A stretch of 64,000 nucleotides of DNA, from NCBI GenBank assembly GCA_038231135.1, contig JBBRLX010000002.1, positions 1 to 64,000 of the forward strand. Reading direction: 5' to 3'. The position numbers were made by a program, and so were the translations under genes. Below the pieces are notes generated by a model. The model saw only the letters and a list, made by a program, of their open reading frames with translations, was not told the origin of the DNA and did not search any database. Position 1 is the first letter of the stretch. Each line of letters opens with the position of its first letter. Source of the stretch: Candidatus Eiseniibacteriota bacterium (GTDB lineage Bacteria; Eisenbacteria; RBG-16-71-46). Positions 15,031 through 28,615 of this stretch are shown here, in pieces.

Positions 15031-16845
15031 TTATGAATCCGCGCGGATCCCCAGCTCCTTCAGCGTCTCCGGCTCGACGGCGCCGGGCGAGCCGTCCATC
15101 AGGCACGCGGCGCTCGCGCTCTTCGGGAACGCGATGGTGTCGCGGATGCTGTCGCGGCCGGCGAGCAGCATGACGATGCGGTCGAGCCCGAGCCCGATGC
15201 CGCCATGCGGCGGCGACGCGTACTTGTAGGCGTCGATCAGGAACCCGAACTTCTCGTGCGCCTGCTCCTTCGTGAAGCCGCACACCTGCAGCACGCGCTC
15301 CTGGATGTCGGGGCGGTGGATGCGAATCGAGCCCGAGCCGAGCTCGTTGCCGTTCAGCACCAGGTCGTAGAGCTGGGCGTAGACCTTGCCGGGATCGCTC
15401 TCGAGGATGTCGAGATGCTCGGGGTTCGGCATCGTGAACATGTGATGCCGCGCGACCCAGCCCTTGTGATGCGGGTCGTACTCGAACAGCGGGAATTCCC
15501 GCACCCACAGAAACGCCCAGTCCCTGGTATTCGGCTTCACGAGGTCGCGGCCGAGCTGGCTGCGCAGCACGCCCAACGCCTTGAGCGTCTGCTCCCACGG
15601 ACCGTTCGTGAACACCACCGCGTCGCCGGTACGGGCGTTGACGCGCTCGAGGAATTCGTCGAGCAGCCCCCCCGGGAAGATCACCTGCTGCTTGTCGCGC
15701 TCGGCGTCGAGCACCTTGAAGAACGTGAGCCCGCCCGCGCCGGCGGCCTTCACCACGTCCTCGAACTTGCGCAGCTGGGTGCCCGAGATCTCGGCGCCAT
15801 TGGGAATCACCATCGCGGCCGCGGTGCCGCCCGGCGCGTTGGCGCCGTTCGCGATCACGTTGCGCGGCGAGCGCGCGCTGATCGACGTCACGTCGACGAA
15901 CTCGAGCCCGAACCGCACGTCGGGCTTGTCGGAGCCGTAGCGGCTCATCGATTCGTTGAACGTCAGCCGCGGGAACGGGGTCTTGAGGTCCACGCCGAGG
16001 CACTCGCGCCAGATCGCGGTGAACAGTCCTTCGATGACGCGGAACACGTCCTCCTCGCCCGCGAAGCTCATCTCGACGTCGATCTGGGTGTGCTCCGGCT
16101 GGCGGTCGGCGCGCAGGTCCTCGTCGCGCAGGCAGCGCGCGAGCTGGAAGTAGCGGTCGCAGCCCGAGATCATCAGCGTCTGCTTGTAGAGCTGCGGGCT
16201 CTGCGGCAGCGCGTAGAACGAGCCGTGGTGAATGCGGCTCGGCACGATGTAGTCGCGCGCGCCCTCGGGCGTCGGCTTCACCAGCAGCGGCGTCTCGATC
16301 TCGAGGAAGCTCTGGCTCGACAGGTAGGAGCGCGCCGCCATCGCGGCCTTGTGCCGCAGCGCCAGCACCGCGGCCAGCTCGGGCCGGCGCAGGTCGAGGA
16401 ACCGGTAGCGCAGCCGCAGATCCTCGTTCGCCAGGTTCTGCTCCTCGTTCACCTGGAACGGCAGCGGCGCCGACTCCGACAGCACCTTCAGCTCGCGCGC
16501 GTCGAGCTCGACGTCGCCGGTCGGCAGCTCGGCATTGAGCGATTCCGCGGGCCGCATCGCGACCGGGCCGCGCACCGCGATCACCCACTCGTTGCCCAGT
16601 TGCTCGCCGCGCCGCAGCAGCTCCTTGCCGCCGGTCTCGGGGCGCATCACGACCTGCGTGATGCCGTAGCGGTCGCGCAGGTCGATGAACAGCACGCCGC
16701 CGTGGTCGCGCGTGCGGTGCACCCAGCCCATCAGCGTGGCCGCTGCGCCCGCGTGCGCCGGGCGCAGCTCGCCGCAGGTGTGGCTGCGCCGCCAGTCGTC
16801 GAGTCCTTCGAGCTTGAGGTCCGTCGCAACGATCGGTTCCGTCAT
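15031..16845 (-). CDS. aspS: Aspartate--tRNA ligase
   Basis: RSHTCGELR, RDHGG, EGARDY, LPQSPQ, RDEDLRADRQPE, PPHGGIGLGLDR. Confidence 0.98.
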   Translation of the reverse strand: MTEPIVATDLKLEGLDDWRRSHTCGELRPAHAGAAATLMGWVHRTRDHGGVLFIDLRDRYGITQVVMRPETGGKELLRRGEQLGNEWVIAVRGPVAMRPAESLNAELPTGDVELDARELKVLSESAPLPFQVNEEQNLANEDLRLRYRFLDLRRPELAAVLALRHKAAMAARSYLSSQSFLEIETPLLVKPTPEGARDYIVPSRIHHGSFYALPQSPQLYKQTLMISGCDRYFQLARCLRDEDLRADRQPEHTQIDVEMSFAGEEDVFRVIEGLFTAIWRECLGVDLKTPFPRLTFNESMSRYGSDKPDVRFGLEFVDVTSISARSPRNVIANGANAPGGTAAAMVIPNGAEISGTQLRKFEDVVKAAGAGGLTFFKVLDAERDKQQVIFPGGLLDEFLERVNARTGDAVVFTNGPWEQTLKALGVLRSQLGRDLVKPNTRDWAFLWVREFPLFEYDPHHKGWVARHHMFTMPNPEHLDILESDPGKVYAQLYDLVLNGNELGSGSIRIHRPDIQERVLQVCGFTKEQAHEKFGFLIDAYKYASPPHGGIGLGLDRIVMLLAGRDSIRDTIAFPKSASAACLMDGSPGAVEPETLKELGIRADS

Positions 16846-16870
16846 GGCGTCTTTCCGGGATTCGAACCCA

Positions 16871-18187
16871 TCACGTCGTGTGCCGGGGCGCGGCGTCCGC
16901 CGGGCTCCCGATGAGCCGCTCGCGCAGCGCGTGTTCGAGACTCGCGAGCGGCACCGTCTGCTGGGTGCCGTCGGTGAGATTCTTCACCACCACCTCGTCG
17001 CGCCGCCACTCGTCCTCGCCCGCGATCACGAGGAACCGGGCGCCGCTCTTGCCGGCAGCCTTCATCTGGGCGTTGAAGCCGCGCCCGTCGAGATCCATCG
17101 TCACCGCGAACTCGCGGCGCAGCCGGCGCACCAGCGCGAGCGCGCCGGCGCGCGTGGCGTCCATGGCCACGACGACGATCTCGGCAGCCGGCTCGGCCAT
17201 CGGGCCCAGGCGCTGCTCGATCGCCAGGATCGCGCGGTCGAGGCCGATCGAGAACCCGACACCCGGAGTCGGCGGGCCGCCCAGGGCCTCGATCAATCCA
17301 TCGTAACGGCCGCCGCCGCCGAGCGCGCTCTGGGCGCCGAGCGTGGTGTCGTGCACCTCGAACGCCGTGCGCGTGTAGTAGTCGAGCCCGCGCACCAGGG
17401 CGTGGTCGATTTCGTACCGGATGCCGACCGCGTCGAGCCCCACGCGCACCGCGTCGAAGTGCGCGCGCGACTCGGCATCGAGCACGTCGAGCATCCGCGG
17501 CATCGTGGCCGGATCGAGCCCACCCTGTTCGCCCTTCAGAATGGCCTGATCGACCGGCGCCTTGGAATCGAGCACGCGCAGCGGATTGCGCACCAGCCGC
17601 TCCTGCGAATCGGCGCTCAGCAGGCTGTGCGCCGGCTCGAGCCAGGCGCGCAGTGCATCGCCGTAGGCGCGGCGTGTCTCGGGCGTGCCCACGCTGTTGA
17701 GCGCGACCGTGAGATTCTCGAAACCCCACGCCTCGAACAGATCGACGAACAGCGCGATGATCTCGACGTCCGCGTCCGGCGCCGGCGTGCCGATGATCTC
17801 GGCGCCGATCTGGCGGAACTGCCGGTAGCGTCCCTTCTGCGGCCGCCCGTAGCGATACATCGGGCCCATGTACCAGAGCCGGTGCACGCGACCCCGGCCA
17901 CCCAGGCCGTGCTCGAGATACGCGCGGCACACGCCGGCCGTGCCCTCGGGGCGCAGCGCCAGGTCCCGGTCGCCGAGATCCTTGAAGCGGTACATCTCCT
18001 TCTGCACCACGTCGCTCGATTCGCCGCTGGTGCGCGCGAACAACTCGTAGTCCTCGAACGTCGGCGTGCGGATCTCGTGGTAGCCGTAGCGGCGCACCAC
18101 TTCGCGCGCGCGTTCCTCGACCCACTGCCAGCGCTCGATCTCGCCCGGCAGCAGATCACGCGTCCCGCGCGGCGCCTGGTGCTTCAT
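16871..18187 (-). CDS. hisS: Histidine--tRNA ligase
   Basis: PRGTRD, LRPEGTAG, RPQKGRYRQF, LVRGLDYY, GGGRYDGL. Confidence 0.98.
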   Translation of the reverse strand: MKHQAPRGTRDLLPGEIERWQWVEERAREVVRRYGYHEIRTPTFEDYELFARTSGESSDVVQKEMYRFKDLGDRDLALRPEGTAGVCRAYLEHGLGGRGRVHRLWYMGPMYRYGRPQKGRYRQFRQIGAEIIGTPAPDADVEIIALFVDLFEAWGFENLTVALNSVGTPETRRAYGDALRAWLEPAHSLLSADSQERLVRNPLRVLDSKAPVDQAILKGEQGGLDPATMPRMLDVLDAESRAHFDAVRVGLDAVGIRYEIDHALVRGLDYYTRTAFEVHDTTLGAQSALGGGGRYDGLIEALGGPPTPGVGFSIGLDRAILAIEQRLGPMAEPAAEIVVVAMDATRAGALALVRRLRREFAVTMDLDGRGFNAQMKAAGKSGARFLVIAGEDEWRRDEVVVKNLTDGTQQTVPLASLEHALRERLIGSPADAAPRHTT

Positions 18188-18588
18188 CGCGCCCCGGCGC
18201 GGCGCGCGATCCAGCGCGCGTAGAGCCACTGCGCCAGCGACACGCCGATCACGTCCGCCATCGCGTCGTAGCCGCTCGACTCGCGGCCGGGCACGTGCAT
18301 CTGCCAGAGTTCGTCGCACGTCGCGATGACTGCGCCCAGCGCGATCGCGATCCAGACCCGGTTCGCCAGCGGCCGCCCCGGCAGAAACGCGCGCAGCGTG
18401 CGCGCCAGCAGCAGGCCCAGGCCGCCGTATTCGCTCATGTGATAGAGCTTGTCCGAGTTCGTGAACTCGATCGGTGCGTGGAGGTGCGGCTGGGAACTGA
18501 GCGTGAAGATCACGGCCAGGTAGAGCGCCAGCGGCAGCCCATAGAGGAAGAACGCGTGGGATGGCGACTTCGTGACCTGCCCGGTCAT
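18184..18588 (-). CDS. VanZ family membrane protein
   Basis: IFTLSSQ, DKLYH..EY, DELWQ.HVPGR..S..D...D; GAGGAG RBS. Confidence 0.9.
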   Translation of the reverse strand: MTGQVTKSPSHAFFLYGLPLALYLAVIFTLSSQPHLHAPIEFTNSDKLYHMSEYGGLGLLLARTLRAFLPGRPLANRVWIAIALGAVIATCDELWQMHVPGRESSGYDAMADVIGVSLAQWLYARWIARRAGAR

Positions 18589-18843
18589 GGAACTCCTCGG
18601 AAAACACGTGCGTTCGGACGGCGCGCGGCGGCGCCTGCTCGAGGGGCATCGAAAGACGGGCGAACATAGCACGGATCATTTACTTCCGGCTTCGGCCGGC
18701 CGGCCGGCCGGGCCTGGTTGCCGGAATCCGGTCTGCGGGAAAATGCGCCGGCACCTTGCGCCGGGACCGCTCGTGCGGGTAGCTTGTCGGGCGATCTTCG
18801 CTTGGACCGTCACTCCCGTGACGAGCCCCCCCAACGCATTGGC

Positions 18844-18919
18844 GCGCCGCTAGCTCAATTGGCAGAGCAAGTGACTCTTAATCACTAGGTTCTTGGTTCG
18901 ATTCCAAGGCGGCGCACCA
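18844..18919 (+). tRNA. tRNA-Lys(CTT)
   Basis: Acceptor GCGCCGC/GCGGCGC, D arm GCTC/GAGC, anticodon stem AGTGA/TCACT with loop CTCTTAA, T-loop TTCGATT, ACCA end; 76 nt. Confidence 0.97.
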
Positions 18920-19034: not shown

Positions 19035-21226
19035 ATGCGCCGTTGGATCCTGCTGGCTCTCGCTTGCATCACGGTCATGTCCGCCACCGCGCCGCGCCTG
19101 CCCCACACCGCGAAGAAACCGGTCGAGGACAAGTACTACGGCGAAACGATCAAGGACGACTATCGCTGGCTCGAGGATTGGAAGGATCCGGCGGTCAAAG
19201 CGTGGAGCGACTCGGAGAACGCGGTCGCGCGCGCGTATTTCGACAGCCTGCCCACGCGCAAGGCGGTGCTCCAGAACATCGAGGCGCTGACAAAGAGCCC
19301 GTACCCGTCGTGGCCCCAAGTCCGCCACGCGGGTCACTACTGGTTCGCGCTCGAGAACCGGCCGCCCAAGCAGCAGCCGCGACTGGTGCGGCTCACGTCG
19401 CTCGATGCCCTGGGCAGCGAAAAAGTGCTCGTCGATCCCAACGCGATCGACCCGTCCGGCGCGACGACGATCGACTACTTCGAGCCGTCGCTCGACGGCT
19501 CGATGGTGGCGGTGTCGATGTCGAAGGGCGGCACCGAGTCGGGCACCGCCTATGTCTACGAAACGGCCACCGGTAAGAAGCTGTCCGACGAAGTGCCCGG
19601 CGTGAACGGCGGCACCGCCGGCGGCAGCCTGTCGTGGAATGCGGACTGCACGGGCTTCTGGCGCACGCGCTATCCCGTCACAGGCGAGCGACCCGCGGCG
19701 GACCTCGACTTCTACCTGCAGGTCTACTTCCACAAGCTCGGCACGCCGGCGTCGAAGGACGTGCTGGTGGCGGGGCGCGACTTCCCGAAGATCGCGGAGG
19801 TGAACCTCAGCTCCTCGGACGACGGCAAGTGGGTGCTGGCGGACGTGCTCAATGGCGACGGCGGCGACCACGCGATGTACCTGGCCGACGCGTCGAAGGC
19901 GATGGGCGGCTACGGCGCGTTCCAGAAGATCTCGAGCTTCGAGGATCGCATCGTCGACGCGAAGTTCGGCTCCGGCGACCTGTTCCTGCTGTCGCGCAAG
20001 GGGGCGCCCAAGGGCAAGGTAATCCGACTGCCGCTCGGCATGACGGACCTGTCGAAGGCCTCGGTGGTGGTGCCCGAGGGTGACGGCGGCATCGAGTGGT
20101 TCACGCCGGCCGGCGACCTGCTCTACGTCGAGGAGATCGCGGGCGGCCCGTCGCGCGTGCAGATCTTCGACAGCCACGGGGCCGATCGCGGCGTCATGCC
20201 GATCCCCCCGGCGAGCACGATCGGCGCGATCGAGAAGGGCGGCGGCGGCGATGTCGCGGTGCAGATCGGCACCTACACCCATCCCGGGCGCTGGTCGCGA
20301 TTCACGCCCGCGAAGAAGACCCTCACACCCACGGCGCTGGTCGCCAGGTCGCCGCCCACTACGACGACATCGAAGTGCGCACGGTGGAGGCGATCTCCAA
20401 GGACGGCACCAAGGTGCCGCTCACGATCCTCATGCCGAAGGGTCTCGTGACGGGTTCCCACACGCCGGCGATCCTGACTGGCTACGGCGGCTACGGCATC
20501 AGCCAGCGGCCCGGGTTCAGCCCGACGCGCCGCGTGTGGTTCGACCAGGGCGGCATCCTCGCGATCGCGCACACCCGCGGCGGCGACGAGTTCGGCGACG
20601 CGTGGCACCTGGCCGGCAATCTCACGCGCAAGCAGAACGTGTTCGACGACTTCGCCGCCTGCGCCCAGTACCTGATCGACCATCACTACACGTCCGCGAA
20701 GGCGCTCGCCTGCCAGGGCGGGAGCAACGGCGGATTGCTGATGGGCGCGATGATCACCCAGCATCCCGAGCTGTTCCGCGCGGTGGTCACGAGCGTCGGC
20801 ATCTACGACATGCTGCGCGTCGAGCTGTCGCCGAACGGACTGTTCAACATCACCGAGTTCGGCACCGTGAAGGACAAGGCGCAGTACGCCGCGCTGCGCG
20901 CGTATTCGCCGTACCAGCACGTCGTCGACGGGCGGAAGTACCCGGCGGTGCTGTTCACCACCGGCGGCAACGATCCCCGTGTCGATCCGATGAACTCGCG
21001 CAAGATGGCGGCGCGGCTCCAGGCGGCGGACGCGTCGAACCACCCGATCCTGCTGCGCACCGACGCCCGCGTCGGTCATGGCATCGACAGCCCGCTGTCG
21101 GCGCGCAACGAGCTGTCCGCCGACATGTACTCGTTCATGATGAGCCAGCTCGGCGTGAAGTATCGCGAGAAGCAACCACTCAAGCCGACCATGAAGCCGC
21201 AGCCGGAGAAGATTTCGGCGAAGTAG
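19035..21226 (+). pseudogene. Prolyl oligopeptidase (S9A) with signal peptide, split by one frameshift near 20354
   Basis: DDYRWLED and the propeller in frame 1; SKDGTKVP, GYGG, GGSNGG, DPRV and GHG in the second frame; real lesion or sequencing error. Confidence 0.88.
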
Positions 21227-21293: not shown

Positions 21294-22496
21294 CTACCGC
21301 GCCAGCTGAATCACCAGCCCCGCCGCGCACGCTCCCAGCGCGACCCGCGCCTCCCACGGCACCGCGTTCCCGGGCTCGGGCCGGCGTGACACCACGCCGA
21401 CGGCCTCGCGCATCTGGCGCATGGCCACGGTGAGGCTCGCGATCCACGCGAACGCCAGCGCCAGCATCACCCACGGCCGGCCGCTGCGGCTCACGTCGCG
21501 TGCAGCCTCGAGCCACACGAATGCGCCGGGGGTGCCGGGCACGCCGGCGAGCGAGAACAACGCGTAGAGCCCCGCGACTCCGGCCACGGCGTGGCGGCGG
21601 AACAGTACGGGCGGTGTGCCGGGGCGCGCGTCGGCAACCGGCAGGAACCGCGCGAGGATCGCGGCGCCCGACAGCGCGAGCACGAGATGCGCCGACCAGC
21701 GCGGGACGACGCCCGCAATCACGCCGGCGCCGCCCACTCCGGCGCGCGCGAACGCCAGCATCGCGAGCAGCAGCCCGCCGTTGAGGCTCGCGAGCGTGCC
21801 CACGCGGCGCTCGGGGCGGCGTTGCACGAGGAGCGTGAGGCCGCCGATCGCGAACGCCAGCGCGGCGACGATCGCGAGCAGCTCGGTGACGGCACGCGCG
21901 CCGTCGTGGAACCCCTCGATGCCGGCGATGCGTGCGGCGAGCCACTCGGCGCCGCACACCTGCAGCGCCACGACCGCGAGCGGCGCGAGCCACGCCGGCG
22001 CGCCCTGCAGCAGATCGGCAGCCCAGAAGTGGAACGGCGCGCCGCCGAGCAGTACGACGCCGAGCAGCAGCGACAGCGGCAGCGCGGTGCGCCACAGGAA
22101 GTCGGGGTCGATCCCCATCTCGAGCACGGCCCATTGCTCAGTCGTGTACGGCGTGCCCGTCGAGATCTGCAGCAGCATCACGCCGGCCCACGACAGCGCG
22201 AGTGCCGCGCCCAACACCCACAGCAGCTTGATCGCGCATTCGCTCTGCAGCAGGTTGTCGCGGTCGCGCGCGAGCAGCGCGATGACGAGGCCGAGCACCA
22301 GCATCAGCCCGCCGGGCCCCGCCGCGGCTGCGAGCCCCGCGGCGCCGGCAAGCGGCACCAGCACGATCGCGGTGCTCAACTCGAACAGGTCCACGCGGCC
22401 GCGCCGGTCGAGCGCCAGCATCAGCACACCGGTGGCGAGCGCGATCAGCGGCGCGATCAGCGGCGCCTGGGCGGCGAGCACGGCCATCGCGTTCAT
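21294..22496 (-). CDS. NuoN/MrpD-like antiporter-fold membrane protein, degenerate
   Basis: ECAIK, APFHFWAADLLQGAP and FSLAGVPGTPG correspond to NuoN EAxIKY, PFHxWxPDVYxGAP and SLAGIPxxxGF. Confidence 0.8.
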   Translation of the reverse strand: MNAMAVLAAQAPLIAPLIALATGVLMLALDRRGRVDLFELSTAIVLVPLAGAAGLAAAAGPGGLMLVLGLVIALLARDRDNLLQSECAIKLLWVLGAALALSWAGVMLLQISTGTPYTTEQWAVLEMGIDPDFLWRTALPLSLLLGVVLLGGAPFHFWAADLLQGAPAWLAPLAVVALQVCGAEWLAARIAGIEGFHDGARAVTELLAIVAALAFAIGGLTLLVQRRPERRVGTLASLNGGLLLAMLAFARAGVGGAGVIAGVVPRWSAHLVLALSGAAILARFLPVADARPGTPPVLFRRHAVAGVAGLYALFSLAGVPGTPGAFVWLEAARDVSRSGRPWVMLALAFAWIASLTVAMRQMREAVGVVSRRPEPGNAVPWEARVALGACAAGLVIQLAR

Positions 22497-23890
22497 CGCA
22501 GCAGCGGCAGCACCATGGCCAGCACTCCGAGCCCGACGAGGAACAGCAGGTACTCCTGCGCGTCGCCGGTGTGCAGGTCGTGAATCGCGCCGGTGACGCC
22601 GCCGGTGACCTGGCGCAGCGCCGCGAGCACGCGACGCTCGACGTGTACGACCAGCTCGAAGATCCGCTGCGCCAGCGCGCGCGGCGCATCACCCTGCGTG
22701 CCGAGCCGTTCCCACACGGCGCGCGTGCGCGTCTGGCGCGCCAGCACCGCGAGCCACCCGCCCACCGCGGCAGGCGCGAGTGCCAGCAGCGAACTGCGCC
22801 ACGGCGGCTCGAAGCCTCCCCACCACGCGACGGCGAGCGCCAGCGGGCCGAGCATCAGCACGGCGATCGCGGCCGCATGGCTGGACGTGAGCGCGGGATC
22901 GGGGCGCATCACCTTGCGGCGCTCCTCGGCGCTGTGCATGCGTGCCACCGACAGCCACGCCGCGATTGCGGTGGCGATCGCGATGCCGGGCACGATCAGC
23001 GCGTTCACGCGGCTGGGGCGCACGCCGTGGGCGATCATCGCCGGCCACGCGAGCGACGCGAGCGCGGTCCAGCTCGCGGCGCGCCACAGCCGCGTGAGCT
23101 GGACGCCCCGGCGCGGCGCCGAGCCGCGCAGCTCGCCCACCAGCAGGAACACGTGGGTGCCGCACGCCGCGAACCACAGCAGCAACGACGCCAGCGGCGT
23201 CACGCGATTGCCGGCCACGAGCAGCGCCGCGAGCGCGCAGTCCGTGACGACGAGCCAGCGCAGGCTCGCGGTCCAGGAGCGCCGCGCATAGGCGCGCAGC
23301 ACCGCGAGCACCGCGGTGACGGTCAGCAGCACCATCGCCGTAAGCCGCACGAACGGCACGTCGATCCAGTGCTCGGACTGCCGCCACAACACCGCGAACC
23401 CCGCCGCCGGCAGCAGCGCGGGCAGCCAGATGCGCGTGCCGAGGAACGGCCCCGGCAGGTCCGAGAACGCGCGCGCCATCGGCAGCGCGGCGAGCAGCTC
23501 GAGCCCGGCCCACACCACCGCACCCGCTTCGATCACGCGGAACAGCGCCACCCATGCCACCGTGGCGCCGCCGTGCATCGCCTGCAGCACGCCGCGCGCG
23601 GGCAGCGGCGGGCCGTGGCCATGCGCCAGCACCGGGAACGCGGCGTGGATCGCGAACGCGAGCCATAGCGCCGTCGCCGGCCGCCGCACCCAGCTCCAGC
23701 GCATCACCTGCTCGGGCGCATCGTCCGCCGCGCGCGCCCAGCACCAGAACGCGGCACCGATCAACTCGATGCCGATGGCGCCCGCGAGCAACGACCGCAC
23801 CCACAGCAGTGCCGCGCCCACGATGCACAGCGCGATCCCCAGCCGGCGGGGATCGGTGCTCCAGCTCCAGACCTCGCGCGCGCGCCGCAT
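22493..23890 (-). CDS. Multi-pass membrane protein, NuoL/HyfB/MrpA-like, highly diverged
   Basis: Many TM segments; C-terminal amphipathic stretch then LHTGDAQEYLL, like NuoL/HyfB ends; start and stop overlap both neighbours. Confidence 0.6.
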   Translation of the reverse strand: MRRAREVWSWSTDPRRLGIALCIVGAALLWVRSLLAGAIGIELIGAAFWCWARAADDAPEQVMRWSWVRRPATALWLAFAIHAAFPVLAHGHGPPLPARGVLQAMHGGATVAWVALFRVIEAGAVVWAGLELLAALPMARAFSDLPGPFLGTRIWLPALLPAAGFAVLWRQSEHWIDVPFVRLTAMVLLTVTAVLAVLRAYARRSWTASLRWLVVTDCALAALLVAGNRVTPLASLLLWFAACGTHVFLLVGELRGSAPRRGVQLTRLWRAASWTALASLAWPAMIAHGVRPSRVNALIVPGIAIATAIAAWLSVARMHSAEERRKVMRPDPALTSSHAAAIAVLMLGPLALAVAWWGGFEPPWRSSLLALAPAAVGGWLAVLARQTRTRAVWERLGTQGDAPRALAQRIFELVVHVERRVLAALRQVTGGVTGAIHDLHTGDAQEYLLFLVGLGVLAMVLPLLR

Positions 23891-24549
23891 CAGTCGTGCA
23901 GATCGTGCGCGTCGGCGACCCACGGGCTCGCGGCCACCCGCACGCGCGTGCGGCCGGCGCGCACGGCGAGCGAGCAGCCGAGGGTGGTGGCGAGCAGGAT
24001 CGAGTAGCCCGGCCCCACCGGTTCCTCGAGCAGCCCGCCCGCGGCCACGCGTTCGATGATCTGGAGGCCGAGGCCCAGCATTGCGATGCCGATCGCGAGC
24101 CGAACGGTGTGACGCCGCAGCATCAGGTGGAGCAGCCCGAGGCACAGCACGAGGATGCCGTAGGTCGCGCGGCGTCCCGGATCCGCCGGCAGGTTCTGAC
24201 GCGCCACCGCCACCACCAGCAGGACCAGCACCGAAATGCCGAGCAGCAGCCCGACCATGCTCGTCTCGAGCAGACCCGTGCGGCGTCCCCGGCTCGGCGT
24301 CTGCCGCGGCACGCGCTCGCTGTACACCGCCCACGCGAGCAGCGCCCACAGCACGATCCAGCCGAGCCTGAGCAGCGGCGGATCGACGAGCGTGGACGTC
24401 ATCGCGAGCGCCGCGGCGACCCCGAGGGTGCCCACGCGGGCGACCACCCGGCCGGGCAGGAACACCAGGAGGATCATGAGCCCGACCGGCAGGAACCACG
24501 CGAGCACGTCGGTGGGGGGCAACTGGGTCCACGAATCGAGGAACCGCAC
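23890..24549 (-). CDS. HyfE/NuoK-like membrane protein
   Basis: 219 aa; GLLHLMLRRHTVRLAIGI and the C-terminus WVADAHDLHD resemble NuoK/MnhC/HyfE. Confidence 0.6.
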   Translation of the reverse strand: MRFLDSWTQLPPTDVLAWFLPVGLMILLVFLPGRVVARVGTLGVAAALAMTSTLVDPPLLRLGWIVLWALLAWAVYSERVPRQTPSRGRRTGLLETSMVGLLLGISVLVLLVVAVARQNLPADPGRRATYGILVLCLGLLHLMLRRHTVRLAIGIAMLGLGLQIIERVAAGGLLEEPVGPGYSILLATTLGCSLAVRAGRTRVRVAASPWVADAHDLHD

Positions 24550-24634
24550 GGATCATCCCTCCATCCATGGATCGGCCGGGTACGGGCCGCCGCAGTCACT
24601 CCGCGGGGTTCAAGGCCCCGGGGGCGAACTCGAA

Positions 24635-25102
24635 TCAGGGAATGAAAACGCTTTCGGCCGAGAGCAACGTGGACAGGAACCCCTCGGGGCTCTTCGCCTC
24701 GCGCAGGCTCGTGCGGACGGTTTCTTCCTTGAGCAGCCGCGACAGGTTCGCGAGCGCGCGCACGTGCAACGTGGTGGCCTGCTCGGGCGAGACGAACAGC
24801 ACGATGAGGTAGACCGGCTGACCGTCCTCGGACTCGAAATCGATGCCCTCGGGGATCACCGCGACGGCGGCCGCCATCCGGTCGACCGAGCGCGCCTTGC
24901 CGTGGGGAATGGCCAGGCCGTTGCCGATCCCGGTGCTCATCATGGCTTCCCGGCGCATCACCCGGTCGAGGATCTCGCCCTGGCTGTTGAACTGGTGAGC
25001 CGACTCCAGCACGTCGACCAGTTCGACCAGCGCTTCGCGCTTGGTCCGGGCCTTGAGCTTCAGCGTGACCGCATTGGAATTCAACAGCTCTGACAGCCTC
25101 AT
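24635..25102 (-). CDS. PTS EIIA protein (Ntr/fructose type)
   Basis: RREAMMSTGIGNGLAIPHGK with the phospho-His, GIDFESEDGQPV, HVRALA. Confidence 0.92.
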   Translation of the reverse strand: MRLSELLNSNAVTLKLKARTKREALVELVDVLESAHQFNSQGEILDRVMRREAMMSTGIGNGLAIPHGKARSVDRMAAAVAVIPEGIDFESEDGQPVYLIVLFVSPEQATTLHVRALANLSRLLKEETVRTSLREAKSPEGFLSTLLSAESVFIP

Positions 25103-25639: not shown

Positions 25640-26974
25640 ATGAAGCGTAAGGCCATCGGTTTTCGCGAGCTTCTCGAGCGCTTGCTGCCCGTGGAGCAGC
25701 TTTCGCCTGCCGAGCGCACACGAGTCCGGCGCGCGCTTACCCATGGTTCCAATAATCAGATCGAGCAGGCCGCGTTCGTGGCGCTCGACCGGCTCGAACA
25801 ACTCGGGGCGATCCGACGCCTGCCGGTGACCGACGGCAACTCCGACCGGATGCGGTTCCAGTCGGCGCATGCGCTCGATGTGATCACGATCGAGCTGCCG
25901 CCGACGATCCACCAGGACGGCATCGACCTGCATCCCCGCGTGGCGCTGCTGTCGCGGGCACTCACCGGCAGCGAGCAGGTGCGCCGACTCATGCGGCTCG
26001 ACGATCCGCTGGTATTCTCCGATCCCCGCCGCGGCAACGCGCGGGCGGGGTTGATCGAGCTGCTGGACCAGACCGGCAGCGAGCTGATGGGCGGGACCTC
26101 GGTGCGGTTCCTGCCGCGGCTCACCGATGACGGCCTCGCGGAGGAGGCGCCGTTCGACGCCGTGCTGGCACTCAAGGCCCGTTCGGACCCGCGCTTCATC
26201 ATCGCGTGCGATGACACCGCCCAGTCGCGGCAGTTGCAGGACGCCGGCCTCCAGCGTCAGGCTCGCTCGGTGGCGCTCGCGGGCGTGTTCTCGGAGGACG
26301 GTGAATCGCTGGGGCACCTGGAGGCGCTCGCGCCCGAGGCCCAGGCGTTCGGCGCGCAGGAGCGGGCGATGCTGGCGTTGCTCGCCGATTCCTGCGCGTT
26401 CTCGTGGGAGCGCTCGACGCGCATCGAGAAGCTGGTGTTCATCGATCCCATGACGGGCGCGTTCAACCGCTCGTACTTCGACCGGCAGATGCTGAACGAG
26501 ATGGCGCGCGCCGAGCGGGAGCGCACGTCGTTCGCGCTGTGCATCGTCGACATCGACAACTTCAAGAACGTGAACACCACCTACGGCTACGAGGCCGGCA
26601 ACCGCGTGCTCGAGCACGTGGCGCGCACGCTGCAGACCGGCGTGCGGCCGTTCGACACGGTGGCGCGCTGGGGCGGCGAGGAATTCGCGGTGCTGCTGAC
26701 CGGGCCCGTGCAGGGCGATGGCGTCGTCACGATCTGCGAGCGACTGCGTGGCCTCGTCGAGCGGCAGAAGGTCACGGTCGAAGCGCTCGACCGCAGGTCG
26801 CACGAGATCTCGGTGACGGTGAGCATGGGCGTGGCGGTGTTCCCCGACGATCAGAGCGAGCCCCAGGACCTGTTCAACGCCGCGAATACCGCGCTGCTGC
26901 GCGCCAAGCTCCCGCCCAAGAACCGCGTGGCGTACTATCGACCTCCGGAACAGTGGAAGGCCCGCTCGCGCTGA
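25640..26974 (+). CDS. GAF + GGDEF domain protein
   Basis: DPMTGAFNR, DIDNFKNVN, RPFD I-site, RWGGEEF; GAF-like region upstream. Confidence 0.93.
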   Translation: MKRKAIGFRELLERLLPVEQLSPAERTRVRRALTHGSNNQIEQAAFVALDRLEQLGAIRRLPVTDGNSDRMRFQSAHALDVITIELPPTIHQDGIDLHPRVALLSRALTGSEQVRRLMRLDDPLVFSDPRRGNARAGLIELLDQTGSELMGGTSVRFLPRLTDDGLAEEAPFDAVLALKARSDPRFIIACDDTAQSRQLQDAGLQRQARSVALAGVFSEDGESLGHLEALAPEAQAFGAQERAMLALLADSCAFSWERSTRIEKLVFIDPMTGAFNRSYFDRQMLNEMARAERERTSFALCIVDIDNFKNVNTTYGYEAGNRVLEHVARTLQTGVRPFDTVARWGGEEFAVLLTGPVQGDGVVTICERLRGLVERQKVTVEALDRRSHEISVTVSMGVAVFPDDQSEPQDLFNAANTALLRAKLPPKNRVAYYRPPEQWKARSR

Positions 26975-27131: not shown

Positions 27132-27434
27132 GTGATCGTCATCACCGCCAGCCCGAGCGGCAAGACCGAGATCGAAGCCGGCAAGTGGGACGCGATGGGG
27201 TTCTTCGACGGCGTGCGATTTGTCGGGCTGCTGCGCGTCCTCGACGCGCAGGGCACTGTGCTCACCCCAGGCGGATACGACCCGCTGCGGTTCGAGGTCC
27301 AGAGCGACCTCTCGATCAACGCGGTCCTGGGCACGAGCGGGGCGGGCAAGGCGATGCGCATGGAGCACTGGACGCGACGGAACGTCGAGAAGGCGCCGGC
27401 GCCGCCCACCGAGTCCTGCCCCGGGACTTGCTGC
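27132..27434 (+). pseudogene. Fragment of an unknown gene joined to the IS66 remnant
   Basis: Coding-like frame of about 100 aa ending at the IS66 junction; no clear start. Confidence 0.3.
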
Positions 27435-28495
27435 GGCTGCAGGGCAGCCTGTTCCTGGCCGACATCGCGGCGGAAGCCGAACGACTCGCCGAGCAGCACC
27501 GGGTCGTCGCCACGGTCGAAGTGCCGGCGCATACGCGACCGAAGGGCAAGCACCGCGGCGAGTTCCCCGACCATCTGCCCCTCGTGTGCACGGTGTGCGA
27601 GCTCAGGGACGAAGACCGCGTCTGCGCCTGCGGCGGTGAGCTGAAGCCCTTCGGCGAAGAGACCTCGCGCGAGCTGGAGCGTATCGAGACCTCGATCGTG
27701 CACGAGATCGCGCGCACGAAGTACGCATGCGCGAAGTGCCACGAAGGCGTCGTCACCGCACCCTGGCGCGGCAAGGTGATCGACAAGGGCCTGCTGGGTC
27801 CCGGGTTTCTGGCGCACGTGATCACCGAGCGCTTCGCGAACACCTGCCGTACTACCGGCTCGAGGGCAAATACAAGGCGGAAGGTCTCGACCTGTCGCGC
27901 TCGGTGCTGTGCGAGTCGATGGCGCGCTGCGCCGAACTGCTGGAGCCGATCGCCGAAGTGCTGCGCAACGAGGTGCTCGCCTCCGGAGTGGTCCACACCG
28001 ACGACAAGCCGGTGACGCGGCCAAGTCGGCCGAAGACGGAGCACGGCAGGCTCGCGTGTGGATGTACCTCAATCGCGAAGGCCGGCACTGGTAGGAGTTC
28101 ACCGCAGCCGCAAACGTGATGGACCGGCGCGCGCTCAAGGACTTCACCGGCTACCTGCAGGCCGATGCCTATGGCGGCTACGACCACCTGTTCTTCCCCG
28201 GTGGAGCGACGGAGGTGGCGTGCTGGGCGCACGTCCGTCGCAGGTTCGTCGACGCCGAGGCGACCGACCCGGGGTTGGCGAAGGAGGCCATCGACCGGAT
28301 CCGGATGCTGTTTCAGATCGAGGAGGCAGCGAAAGATCTCGACGACGCGGAGCGCGCCGAACTGCGACGGGCGCGTGCGCGACCACTGCTCGACGAGTTC
28401 CACGCCTGGCTCGAGCTCGCGGAAACGCAGGCATTGCCGAAGTCACCACTCGGCAGGGCGATCACCTATGCGCGCAACCAGTGGCCCGCGTTGCA
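27435..28495 (+). pseudogene. tnpC: IS66 transposase TnpC, internal fragment with frameshifts and a stop
   Basis: CACGGEL..FGEE, KYACAKC, LPYYRL, HTDD, LQADAY, EVACWAHVRR, PKSPLGRAITY spread over several frames; 27435-27644 homologous to 649-858. Confidence 0.92.
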
Positions 28496-28615
28496 GATTC
28501 ATTTGCCTCGTGCCGGTTGTCGGAGACTCCCCCTAATTCCTTGCGATATTTGACCGTTGCCGAACTACACTTGCATTGGGAGCATCCCTGCCACTCCAGC
28601 CCTTGAGGTCAAAAC

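Follow-up and report, generated by a model that had tools for sequence, protein, structure and literature searches.

Lysine-less relatives of NuoJ/K, NuoL and NuoN, likely from a second complex I, behind an EIIA gene in Candidatus Eisenbacteria

What do three genes for complex I-like membrane proteins do behind a gene for EIIA of the phosphotransferase system (PTS), in an operon that encodes nothing else of complex I? The question is raised by a locus in the first 64,000 nucleotides (nt) of contig JBBRLX010000002.1 (assembly GCA_038231135.1), the whole stretch of DNA that was analysed and that is called the window here. A first-pass annotation, made by eye, had described an EIIA gene followed by three overlapping, intact and coupled genes, and had suggested a repurposed pseudo-antiporter complex under PTS control. 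Homologs of the three products, which we call subunits A, B and C, carry the source label Candidatus Eisenbacteria. The four genes are:

24635..25102, minus strand: EIIA, PTS EIIA with a Fru/Mtl/Ntr-type domain, 155 amino acids (PF00359, E-value (E) 2e-34), phospho-acceptor His67 intact
23890..24549, minus strand: subunit A, 219 amino acids, seven predicted helices, NuoJ/K-type fusion
22493..23890, minus strand: subunit B, 465 amino acids, NuoL fold from transmembrane helix (TM) 4 onward
21294..22496, minus strand: subunit C, 400 amino acids, NuoN paralog

All four reading frames are uninterrupted in the window, A and B overlap by TGATG and B and C by ATGA, and 85 nt separate EIIA from A, in agreement with the layout first described. 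An alignment-free count gave no lysine in A, one in B and one in C. We conclude with high confidence that A-B-C is a set of lysine-less complex I arm paralogs kept by selection.

Subunit C was identified solely through its sequence profile. The NuoN profile TIGR01770 matched all 29 C members, and C of the window scored 41.4 bits (E 9e-11) against a curated cut-off of 332.6, which makes it a homolog and not a member. Profile–profile comparison (hhalign) gave 97.6% for NuoN, 33% and 2% for HyfF sets, 3.7% for an Mrp set and 0.7% for NuoL and NuoM, and the best profile matches in the PDB were NuoN/NdhB chains. By its sequence C is therefore a NuoN paralog, lacking approximately the first 75 NuoN residues. 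With NuoN numbered after the canonical copy of the same genome, the axial residues Glu143, Lys228, Lys258 and Lys402 are replaced in C by Val71, Leu149, Gln179 and Trp328. Over the best 120 of 334 matches, the column of the TM5 Glu143 held Val in 98, Ala in 12, Thr in 6 and Glu in none, and that of the TM7 Lys228 held Leu in 105, Met in 11 and Phe and Ala in 2 each; the TM8 Lys258 had become Gln in 119 and the TM12 Lys402 Trp in all 120, and a His column in TM10 read Asn in 73, Gln in 32 and His in 15. Canonical NuoN of the same phylum (n=40) had the TM5 Glu, Lys228, Lys402 and the His in every copy and Lys258 in 39. The axial residues by which NuoN can be tested (E133, K217, K247 and K395) are thus replaced across 120 C homologs, and according to the available portion of PMC13073174, K247 and K395 of Escherichia coli NuoN are required for both pumping and electron transfer. 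The loss of the TM5 Glu and of the TM7, TM8 and TM12 Lys from C, first read by eye, was right and is family-wide. That proper alignment might restore the Lys and Glu residues was not borne out for C or for A, with 120 homologs each. Pfam PF00361, which had been proposed as the profile for this check, misses both B and C. The identification of these subunits also corrects annotation: C homologs are often entered as NADH-quinone oxidoreductase subunit N and A homologs mostly as 'hypothetical'.

Sequence profiles of the PDB gave no match for A or B, and only their folds detect them; both were mapped to NuoK and NuoL by MAFFT, motif anchors and structure ranges. The model of A (predicted local distance difference test, pLDDT, 89) has seven helices, and residues 121-219 superpose on NuoK with a root-mean-square deviation (rmsd) of 2.3-2.4 over 97-98 residues at a middling Z of 7.3-7.4. 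Foldseek returned NdhE (probability 1.0, E 0.57), and the NuoK fold runs to the C-terminus of A. In 120 A homologs an acid was found in the NuoK TM2 window in none and in the TM3 window in four; the Glu36 position is Gly, Ala, Thr or Val and the Glu72 position is non-acid, and the NuoK controls had Glu36 and Glu72 in 37/37. In the model, then, the C-terminal half of A is the NuoK fold without its two Glu, so that the NuoK-like Glu noted as missing in the first reading is one of two that are lost. The N-terminal half is likely NuoJ TM1-4 in a HyfE-like architecture, as judged from gene order, topology, weak NuoJ/NdhG structure rows (Z 5.8-6.0) and a J'K' fusion in a sister family described below; A appears to lack NuoJ TM5.

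For B the family libraries gave no match. Its model (pLDDT 85) had NuoL, ND5 or NdhF as all of its top 16 Foldseek matches (E to 1e-4) and aligned with E. coli NuoL 109-572 over 389 residues (Z 24.0, rmsd 5.7). The protein starts at TM4, without TM1-3, and ends in the lateral helix and last TM; no Lys is conserved anywhere in it. What B does conserve is acid. E42 is the TM5 Glu in 36/36 sequences and pairs with the NuoL TM5 Glu in all three MAFFT modes, and an acid, E/D131, stands beside the TM7 Lys site in 36/36, the site itself being Leu in 35 and Met in 1. A TM10 acid (D/E217, 34/36) and a TM11 basic residue (R/H/K246, 31/36) are also kept, their exact NuoL equivalents being unsure. When the NuoL residues E144-K229-D178 and K399/D400 were used as a test, B was found to keep only the Glu, with the Asp site variable; for what the K229/D178 pair and K399/D400 do in NuoL we follow the available part of PMC9271201. 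The TM12 half, which would hold the distal Lys/Asp exit, is short and variable, and TM12 is unbroken in the model. As the TM5 Glu and two further acids are retained, B is rewired rather than stripped of charge. The initial claim that all three subunits had lost their pumping residues therefore stands for A and C and fails for B, which keeps E42, E/D131, D/E217 and R/H/K246. The frameshifted B of L033 was left out of the B alignment and counts, the B of L037 (internal stop) out of alignment A3, contig-cut genes out of all alignments and hydrogenase- and Mrp-type reading frames out of the canonical L/M/N sets.

The lateral helix of B is short. Spacing from TM15 to the last TM (TM16) had a median of 64 and a range of 54-89 (n=36), and was 84-88 in 32 of 37 NuoL proteins, which places B about 23 residues below canonical (64 vs 87). 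When B was used as a profile query against 1.84 billion representatives, 97 matches came back, apparently family members or fragments (11 inspected), with no intermediate to NuoL; in an Atlas look-up an Eisenbacteria cluster ranked first, and clusters of PF00361 appeared only at 0.89-0.90. Separately, five loci (L094, L096, L099, L101 and L106) encode a second type of NuoL with a lateral helix 25 residues longer than canonical (112 vs 87), as in 2M complexes, and only one nuoM was present in the stretches fetched.

Is such a set of genes maintained? In a phylum set of 206 genomes, 88 others belong to the window's family of Candidatus Eisenbacteria and 117 lie outside it. B was found in 81/88 and A in 83/88 of the family genomes, which are mostly incomplete, and the 117 genomes outside gave marginal matches only (E > 0.002), two for B and one for A. 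In seven within-genus pairs, ratios of non-synonymous to synonymous substitution (dN/dS, NG86) spanned 0.35-0.46 (A), 0.29-0.48 (B) and 0.21-0.49 (C). The canonical J, K, L, M and N subunits gave 0.10-0.40 (5 pairs with data), and YN00, which covers only 5/21 A/B/C comparisons, gave 0.06-0.14. A, B and C are under purifying selection, somewhat looser than that on the canonical subunits, and this speaks against the relaxed selection that had been named as a possible refutation. Across the family A is 35-60% identical and near constant in length. B is broken in two genomes, by an in-frame TGA in G019 and by a frameshift in G025. The window's genome, which is 93% complete, has a separate canonical nuo system, the presence of which had been put forward as a check, with contig C10 carrying nuoAHJKLMN and contig C40 encoding NuoD and NuoF. 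With substitutions fixed in the family, purifying selection and this separate nuo system, the idea of a repurposed pseudo-antiporter complex gains support. The absence of an Mrp or DabA partner, at first asserted for the window, extends to the 93%-complete genome, where neither MnhE (PF01899) nor DabA (PF10070) was found.

The origin of A-B-C was sought at the same locus in other families, for which the following flanking features served:

25640..26974, plus strand: GAF-GGDEF diguanylate cyclase gene, divergent from EIIA, locus marker (PF00990, E 1e-38)
18844..18919, plus strand: tRNA-Lys(CTT), flanking marker just upstream of vanZ on the opposite strand
15031..18672, minus strand: vanZ-hisS-aspS, synteny context outside the complex (VanZ, PF04892; the genes that we take to be hisS and aspS were named by eye from their translations)

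A peptidase gene lies downstream of C, followed by the tRNA-Lys and then vanZ-hisS-aspS. In 33 family loci fetched, six were cut by contig ends, and all 27 that were long enough have the GGDEF gene divergent from EIIA-A-B-C, with gene gaps of 1-144 nt. No NuoA/B/C/D/H/I/M, MrpB/E/F/G, HyfC or hydrogenase subunit is encoded in these 27 complete loci, which hold EIIA-A-B-C only. The GGDEF marker is kept in all 27 and in 20 outgroup loci, for which its ortholog was the selection criterion, and the marker adjoins EIIA also in genomes without A-B-C. A promoter scan gave no signal exceeding chance. Two further features of the window belong to the surroundings: the peptidase gene (19035-21226, plus strand, between C and the tRNA-Lys) looks by eye like a prolyl-oligopeptidase gene broken across two frames and was not found in related loci, and fragments resembling an IS66 transposase by eye lie in several frames at 27132-28553, right after the GGDEF gene.

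Outgroup loci were read in the 20 genomes chosen on the GGDEF ortholog and in 20 further stretches, many of them cut short. Among the 20 loci EIIA stands directly before vanZ in 10, a tetratricopeptide repeat (TPR) gene alone lies between the two in 2, and one gave no clear reading. In one genome of family f13 (G059) the locus reads EIIA-nuoABCDHIJK-zinc-ribbon/TPR-LMN-vanZ-hisS-aspS, and every axial residue checked is intact; another of this family (G110) has the same nuo string through nuoM, as far as it was fetched. The sister family f3 has EIIA-A'H'-J'K'-TPR-NuoL tail-M'-N'-ccsA-hemA-tRNA-Lys-vanZ, where ccsA and hemA are presumed names given by eye; its A' and H' are degraded and lack a quinone module, most axial charges are gone from K' and N' too, and of NuoL a peptide of 77-83 residues is left, the lateral helix and last TM only, the body being lost. 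Family f2 has EIIA-TPR-vanZ only (3/3). The window and f3 alike have this tRNA-Lys ahead of vanZ. From this series of intact nuo operon, degraded arm, TPR gene only and empty locus, A-B-C is most likely what is left of a second complex I operon at this site, and EIIA is the ancestral first gene of an EIIA-[insert]-vanZ-hisS-aspS string. The Hyf/Mrp-like framing of the first-pass annotation gives way to this origin. A Hyf/Ehr origin, prompted by the HyfE size of A, found no statistical support in the alignment of A, and C is far nearer NuoN than HyfF; membership of Mrp or DAB was rejected as no MnhE or DabA was found in the genome and C reached only the low Mrp profile value given above. On a wider scale, and with somewhat less than even confidence, we suggest that an order of Eisenbacteria turned a second complex I, in two lineages (as JK-L-N here and as AH-JK-TPR-L tail-M-N in f3), into lysine-less 'pseudo-pumps' that serve as signalling or assembly platforms after loss of the quinone module.

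Some observations at these loci stand on their own. In f3 (L140:6461-12329, L141, L142, L154 and L164-L167) the arm genes overlap gene to gene, and Arg occupies the TM7 Lys site of M' in 4/4. The zinc-ribbon/TPR gene was present in 18/206 genomes, among them G059 (L179:7174-8157, between nuoK and nuoL), G037, G039 and G041, and in none of the 88 window-family genomes at E 1e-25; its product may be a new complex I accessory or assembly factor. G059 also holds a nuo cluster A-H-J-K-N (L107, G059:C20:21700-32700) in which nuoN comes straight after nuoK, L and M being absent, and which might share subunits with the long-helix operon of the same genome.

We propose that A, B and C would assemble in the order JK-N-L, without NuoM, with the lateral helix of B clamping one neighbour and Trp328 of C facing Glu42 of B. 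The helix of B is short by about one subunit's worth, which fits an arm without NuoM: in the part of PMC9040806 available, each extra subunit of the extra-pump complexes adds 26 residues, and bioRxiv 2022.03.21.484881, as far as its accessible text goes, also has helix length varying with subunit number. Redox-driven or antiport-type pumping by such a complex would be unlikely because NuoA, NuoH, NuoM and a quinone module are absent from the operon and the charged axis is broken at both interfaces. Conservation outside the helices sits on the inferred cytoplasmic side. With loop boundaries set by hand, columns at least 90% conserved made up 26% (B) and 28% (C) of the cytoplasmic loops and 3% and 7% of the outer loops; conserved inner-loop residues of B and C are rich in Arg and Trp, and Arg accounts for 17 of 98 conserved columns in B and 16 of 382 in NuoL. 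Invariant arginines of the inner face stand at positions 64/69/70, 260/261 and 324/325 of B and 230/231 of C. The explanation that we favour is a scaffold or sensor, in which the Arg/Trp-rich inner face would dock a cytoplasmic partner or ligand, EIIA being one candidate, and the buried acids of B would provide a local site for an ion or proton. A precedent for an antiporter-like subunit as a dock is NdhF3 with CupA (PMC6981117, in the part available). The whole proposal, that these lysine-less relatives of NuoJ/K, NuoL and NuoN, likely from a second complex I, likely form a small membrane complex that does not pump and to which a cytoplasmic partner or ligand docks, is in our judgement evenly balanced between being right and being wrong.

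Several points weigh against it. The JK-N-L assembly and the docking of a partner are predictions, and the mapping of B on NuoL is unsure past TM7, at approximately 12% identity. Canonical inner loops carry conserved structural residues too, and the split into inner and outer loops was made on B and C only. The conserved buried charges of B fit transport as well as sensing, and dN/dS of A, B and C lies somewhat above that of the canonical subunits in the same pairs. As to descent, a quick NuoN tree, in which C and f3 N' join by long branches, cannot place the very long branch of C, so that the claim is carried by synteny alone; an approximately unbiased (AU) test gave p = 0.24 for C with the EIIA-linked type and p = 0.08 for C with the family's own NuoN, rejecting neither. 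A and the f3 J'K' fusion are colinear, at a similarity that is not significant (hhalign 0.9%).

A rival explanation, which we consider unlikely, is that B is a rewired transporter or channel in which E42, E/D131, D/E217 and R/H246 would bind and pass a cation or proton on their own, A and C being structural. These residues are conserved in 31-36 of 36 sequences, the 93%-complete genome yielded no Mrp with MnhE, and HycC, with the TM5 Glu kept and Leu at the TM7 Lys site, is still proposed to have a proton path (bioRxiv 2022.03.21.484881, accessible text). However, B has a short and variable TM12 half, where the distal Lys/Asp exit would lie, and its TM12 is unbroken in the model, and f3 keeps only the NuoL tail, suggesting that the core role needs no NuoL body. 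It is much harder to see A-C-B as an exchangeable distal arm that would replace NuoJ/K/N/M/L on NuoH/NuoA and give an uncoupled or throttled complex I, although canonical nuoAHJKLMN and the soluble-arm genes do lie in separate clusters (C10 and C40) and A keeps the NuoK fold to its C-terminus. In the available portion of PMC13073174, K247A and K395A leave approximately 10-17% of electron transfer, so a hybrid would be nearly dead; A apparently lacks NuoJ TM5, and the degraded A' and H' that f3 possesses come with no quinone module. We consider this very improbable. Least credible of all, and already largely refuted, is a neutral relic decaying after loss of function. The two broken copies of B and a dN/dS above that of canonical K and L would be expected of one, but the genes are kept in over 90% of 88 genomes at near constant length and dN/dS below 0.5, and the replacement residues are themselves invariant (Trp328 in 120/120, Gln179 in 119/120).

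Another possibility is that the adjacent EIIA directly regulates the pseudo-antiporter complex according to its own phosphorylation state, and EIIA could putatively bind or regulate A-B-C. EIIA-A-B-C is intact in all 27 complete family loci with the short gaps given above, His67 is invariant (28/28), HPr (PF00381) was found in the genome together with genes that we take by eye from their translations to be EI-like and HprK-like, and EIIA is acidic (isoelectric point, pI, 6) where the inferred inner face of the complex is basic. Control of K+ transport by EIIA-Ntr is established, as far as the available parts of the sources go. EIIA here scores 103.7 bits on TIGR00848 (cut-off 103.5) and, against this possibility, 89 bits on the PtsN model TIGR01419, below its cut-off of 138.7. 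It also stands directly before vanZ, without membrane genes, in the 10 of 20 outgroup loci noted above, and in f2, where the arm genes are gone, it is retained at 57-60% identity. Throughout the class EIIA lies ahead of vanZ and the hisS/aspS genes. It thus keeps its place before an intact complex I, a degraded arm, a TPR gene or nothing, which makes its adjacency to A-B-C an inherited gene order, and the linkage is no evidence for PTS control. The suggestion that the complex is under PTS control is therefore unsupported by the linkage; conservation of that linkage, proposed as a synteny check, does hold in the 27 complete family loci, as an inherited position whatever follows. We regard direct control by EIIA as improbable. 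A second EIIA-domain protein is encoded in the genome set at G000:C7:86615-87160, with its phospho-acceptor His changed to Asn.

To our knowledge, described members of the complex I/Mrp/hydrogenase superfamily keep the charged axis or have a redox or carbonic-anhydrase partner. A unit kept by selection throughout a family without either would mean a non-pumping function of the fold, and A-B-C, at approximately 1,080 residues, would be a natural minimal, uncharged arm. It could show what the scaffold does once the lysine relay is gone, whether ions can move through a single NuoL half-channel that has acids for lysine, and whether lateral-helix length follows subunit number downward as it does upward. 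If the wider proposal for the order is true, one locus shows the intact ancestor, both repurposed forms and an end state with only the TPR gene, and a whole complex I arm was exapted to a non-energetic role. A literature search, most subscription journals and supplements being outside its scope, found no earlier description of A-B-C.

Compared with the arm of the 11-subunit complex I encoded by the G059 operon, A-B-C shares the K, L and N folds, the JK-L-N order, overlapping stops and starts, an L-like lateral helix with final TM and the genomic position. It differs in lacking NuoA/B/C/D/H/I/M and the TPR protein, in the fusion of J and K, in an L without TM1-3 and an N without approximately 75 residues, in a lateral helix some 23 residues shorter and in the loss of the axial chain. 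From formate hydrogenlyase, Hyf and Ehr (HycC/HyfB, HyfE and HyfF) it is set apart by an operon that encodes neither a NuoH-like anchor nor a hydrogenase module, and by a Gly in A for the Glu of the HyfE-type MEN motif; A has the HyfE length (approximately 219 amino acids) and seven-helix J+K layout, and B, like HycC, keeps the TM5 Glu, has Leu for the TM7 Lys and has a short lateral helix. A and HyfE are colinear and of the same length, with an alignment that is not significant, and the NCBIfam HyfE model matches 0/28 members. A HyfE/HyfF-type (Ehr-like) cluster is common elsewhere in the family (L120-L139), a HyfE-like match being found in 53/88 family genomes and, with the same query, none in the window's own. 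With the Mrp antiporter (MrpA-G), A-B-C has in common that it is redox-free, with two antiporter-like subunits and one NuoK-like subunit, but it lacks MrpB/E/F/G as well as the Lys conserved in MrpA and MrpD, and C is NuoN-like rather than MrpD-like. In the DAB layout an antiporter-like subunit, DabB, has DabA as its partner. The NdhF3/NdhD3-CupA system offers an antiporter-like subunit that has lost channel charges and docks a cytoplasmic protein (PMC6981117, available part). In both NdhF3-CupA and DabB-DabA the coupling to a charged axis persists and the soluble partner is known, whereas the operon here encodes only EIIA besides. That EIIA resembles EIIA-Ntr (PtsN) of TrkA, KdpD and Kef in being a stand-alone Fru/Ntr-type EIIA whose His is intact and whose genome also has genes for HPr and EI-like proteins, and differs in its score below the PtsN cut-off, its place outside an rpoN cluster and a position that is conserved whatever follows. 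Despite the common folds, the features that define complex I, Mrp, Hyf/Ehr and DAB were not found together in A-B-C, which sets it apart from each of them; its function is possibly new, and it is likely an energy pump recycled for another job.

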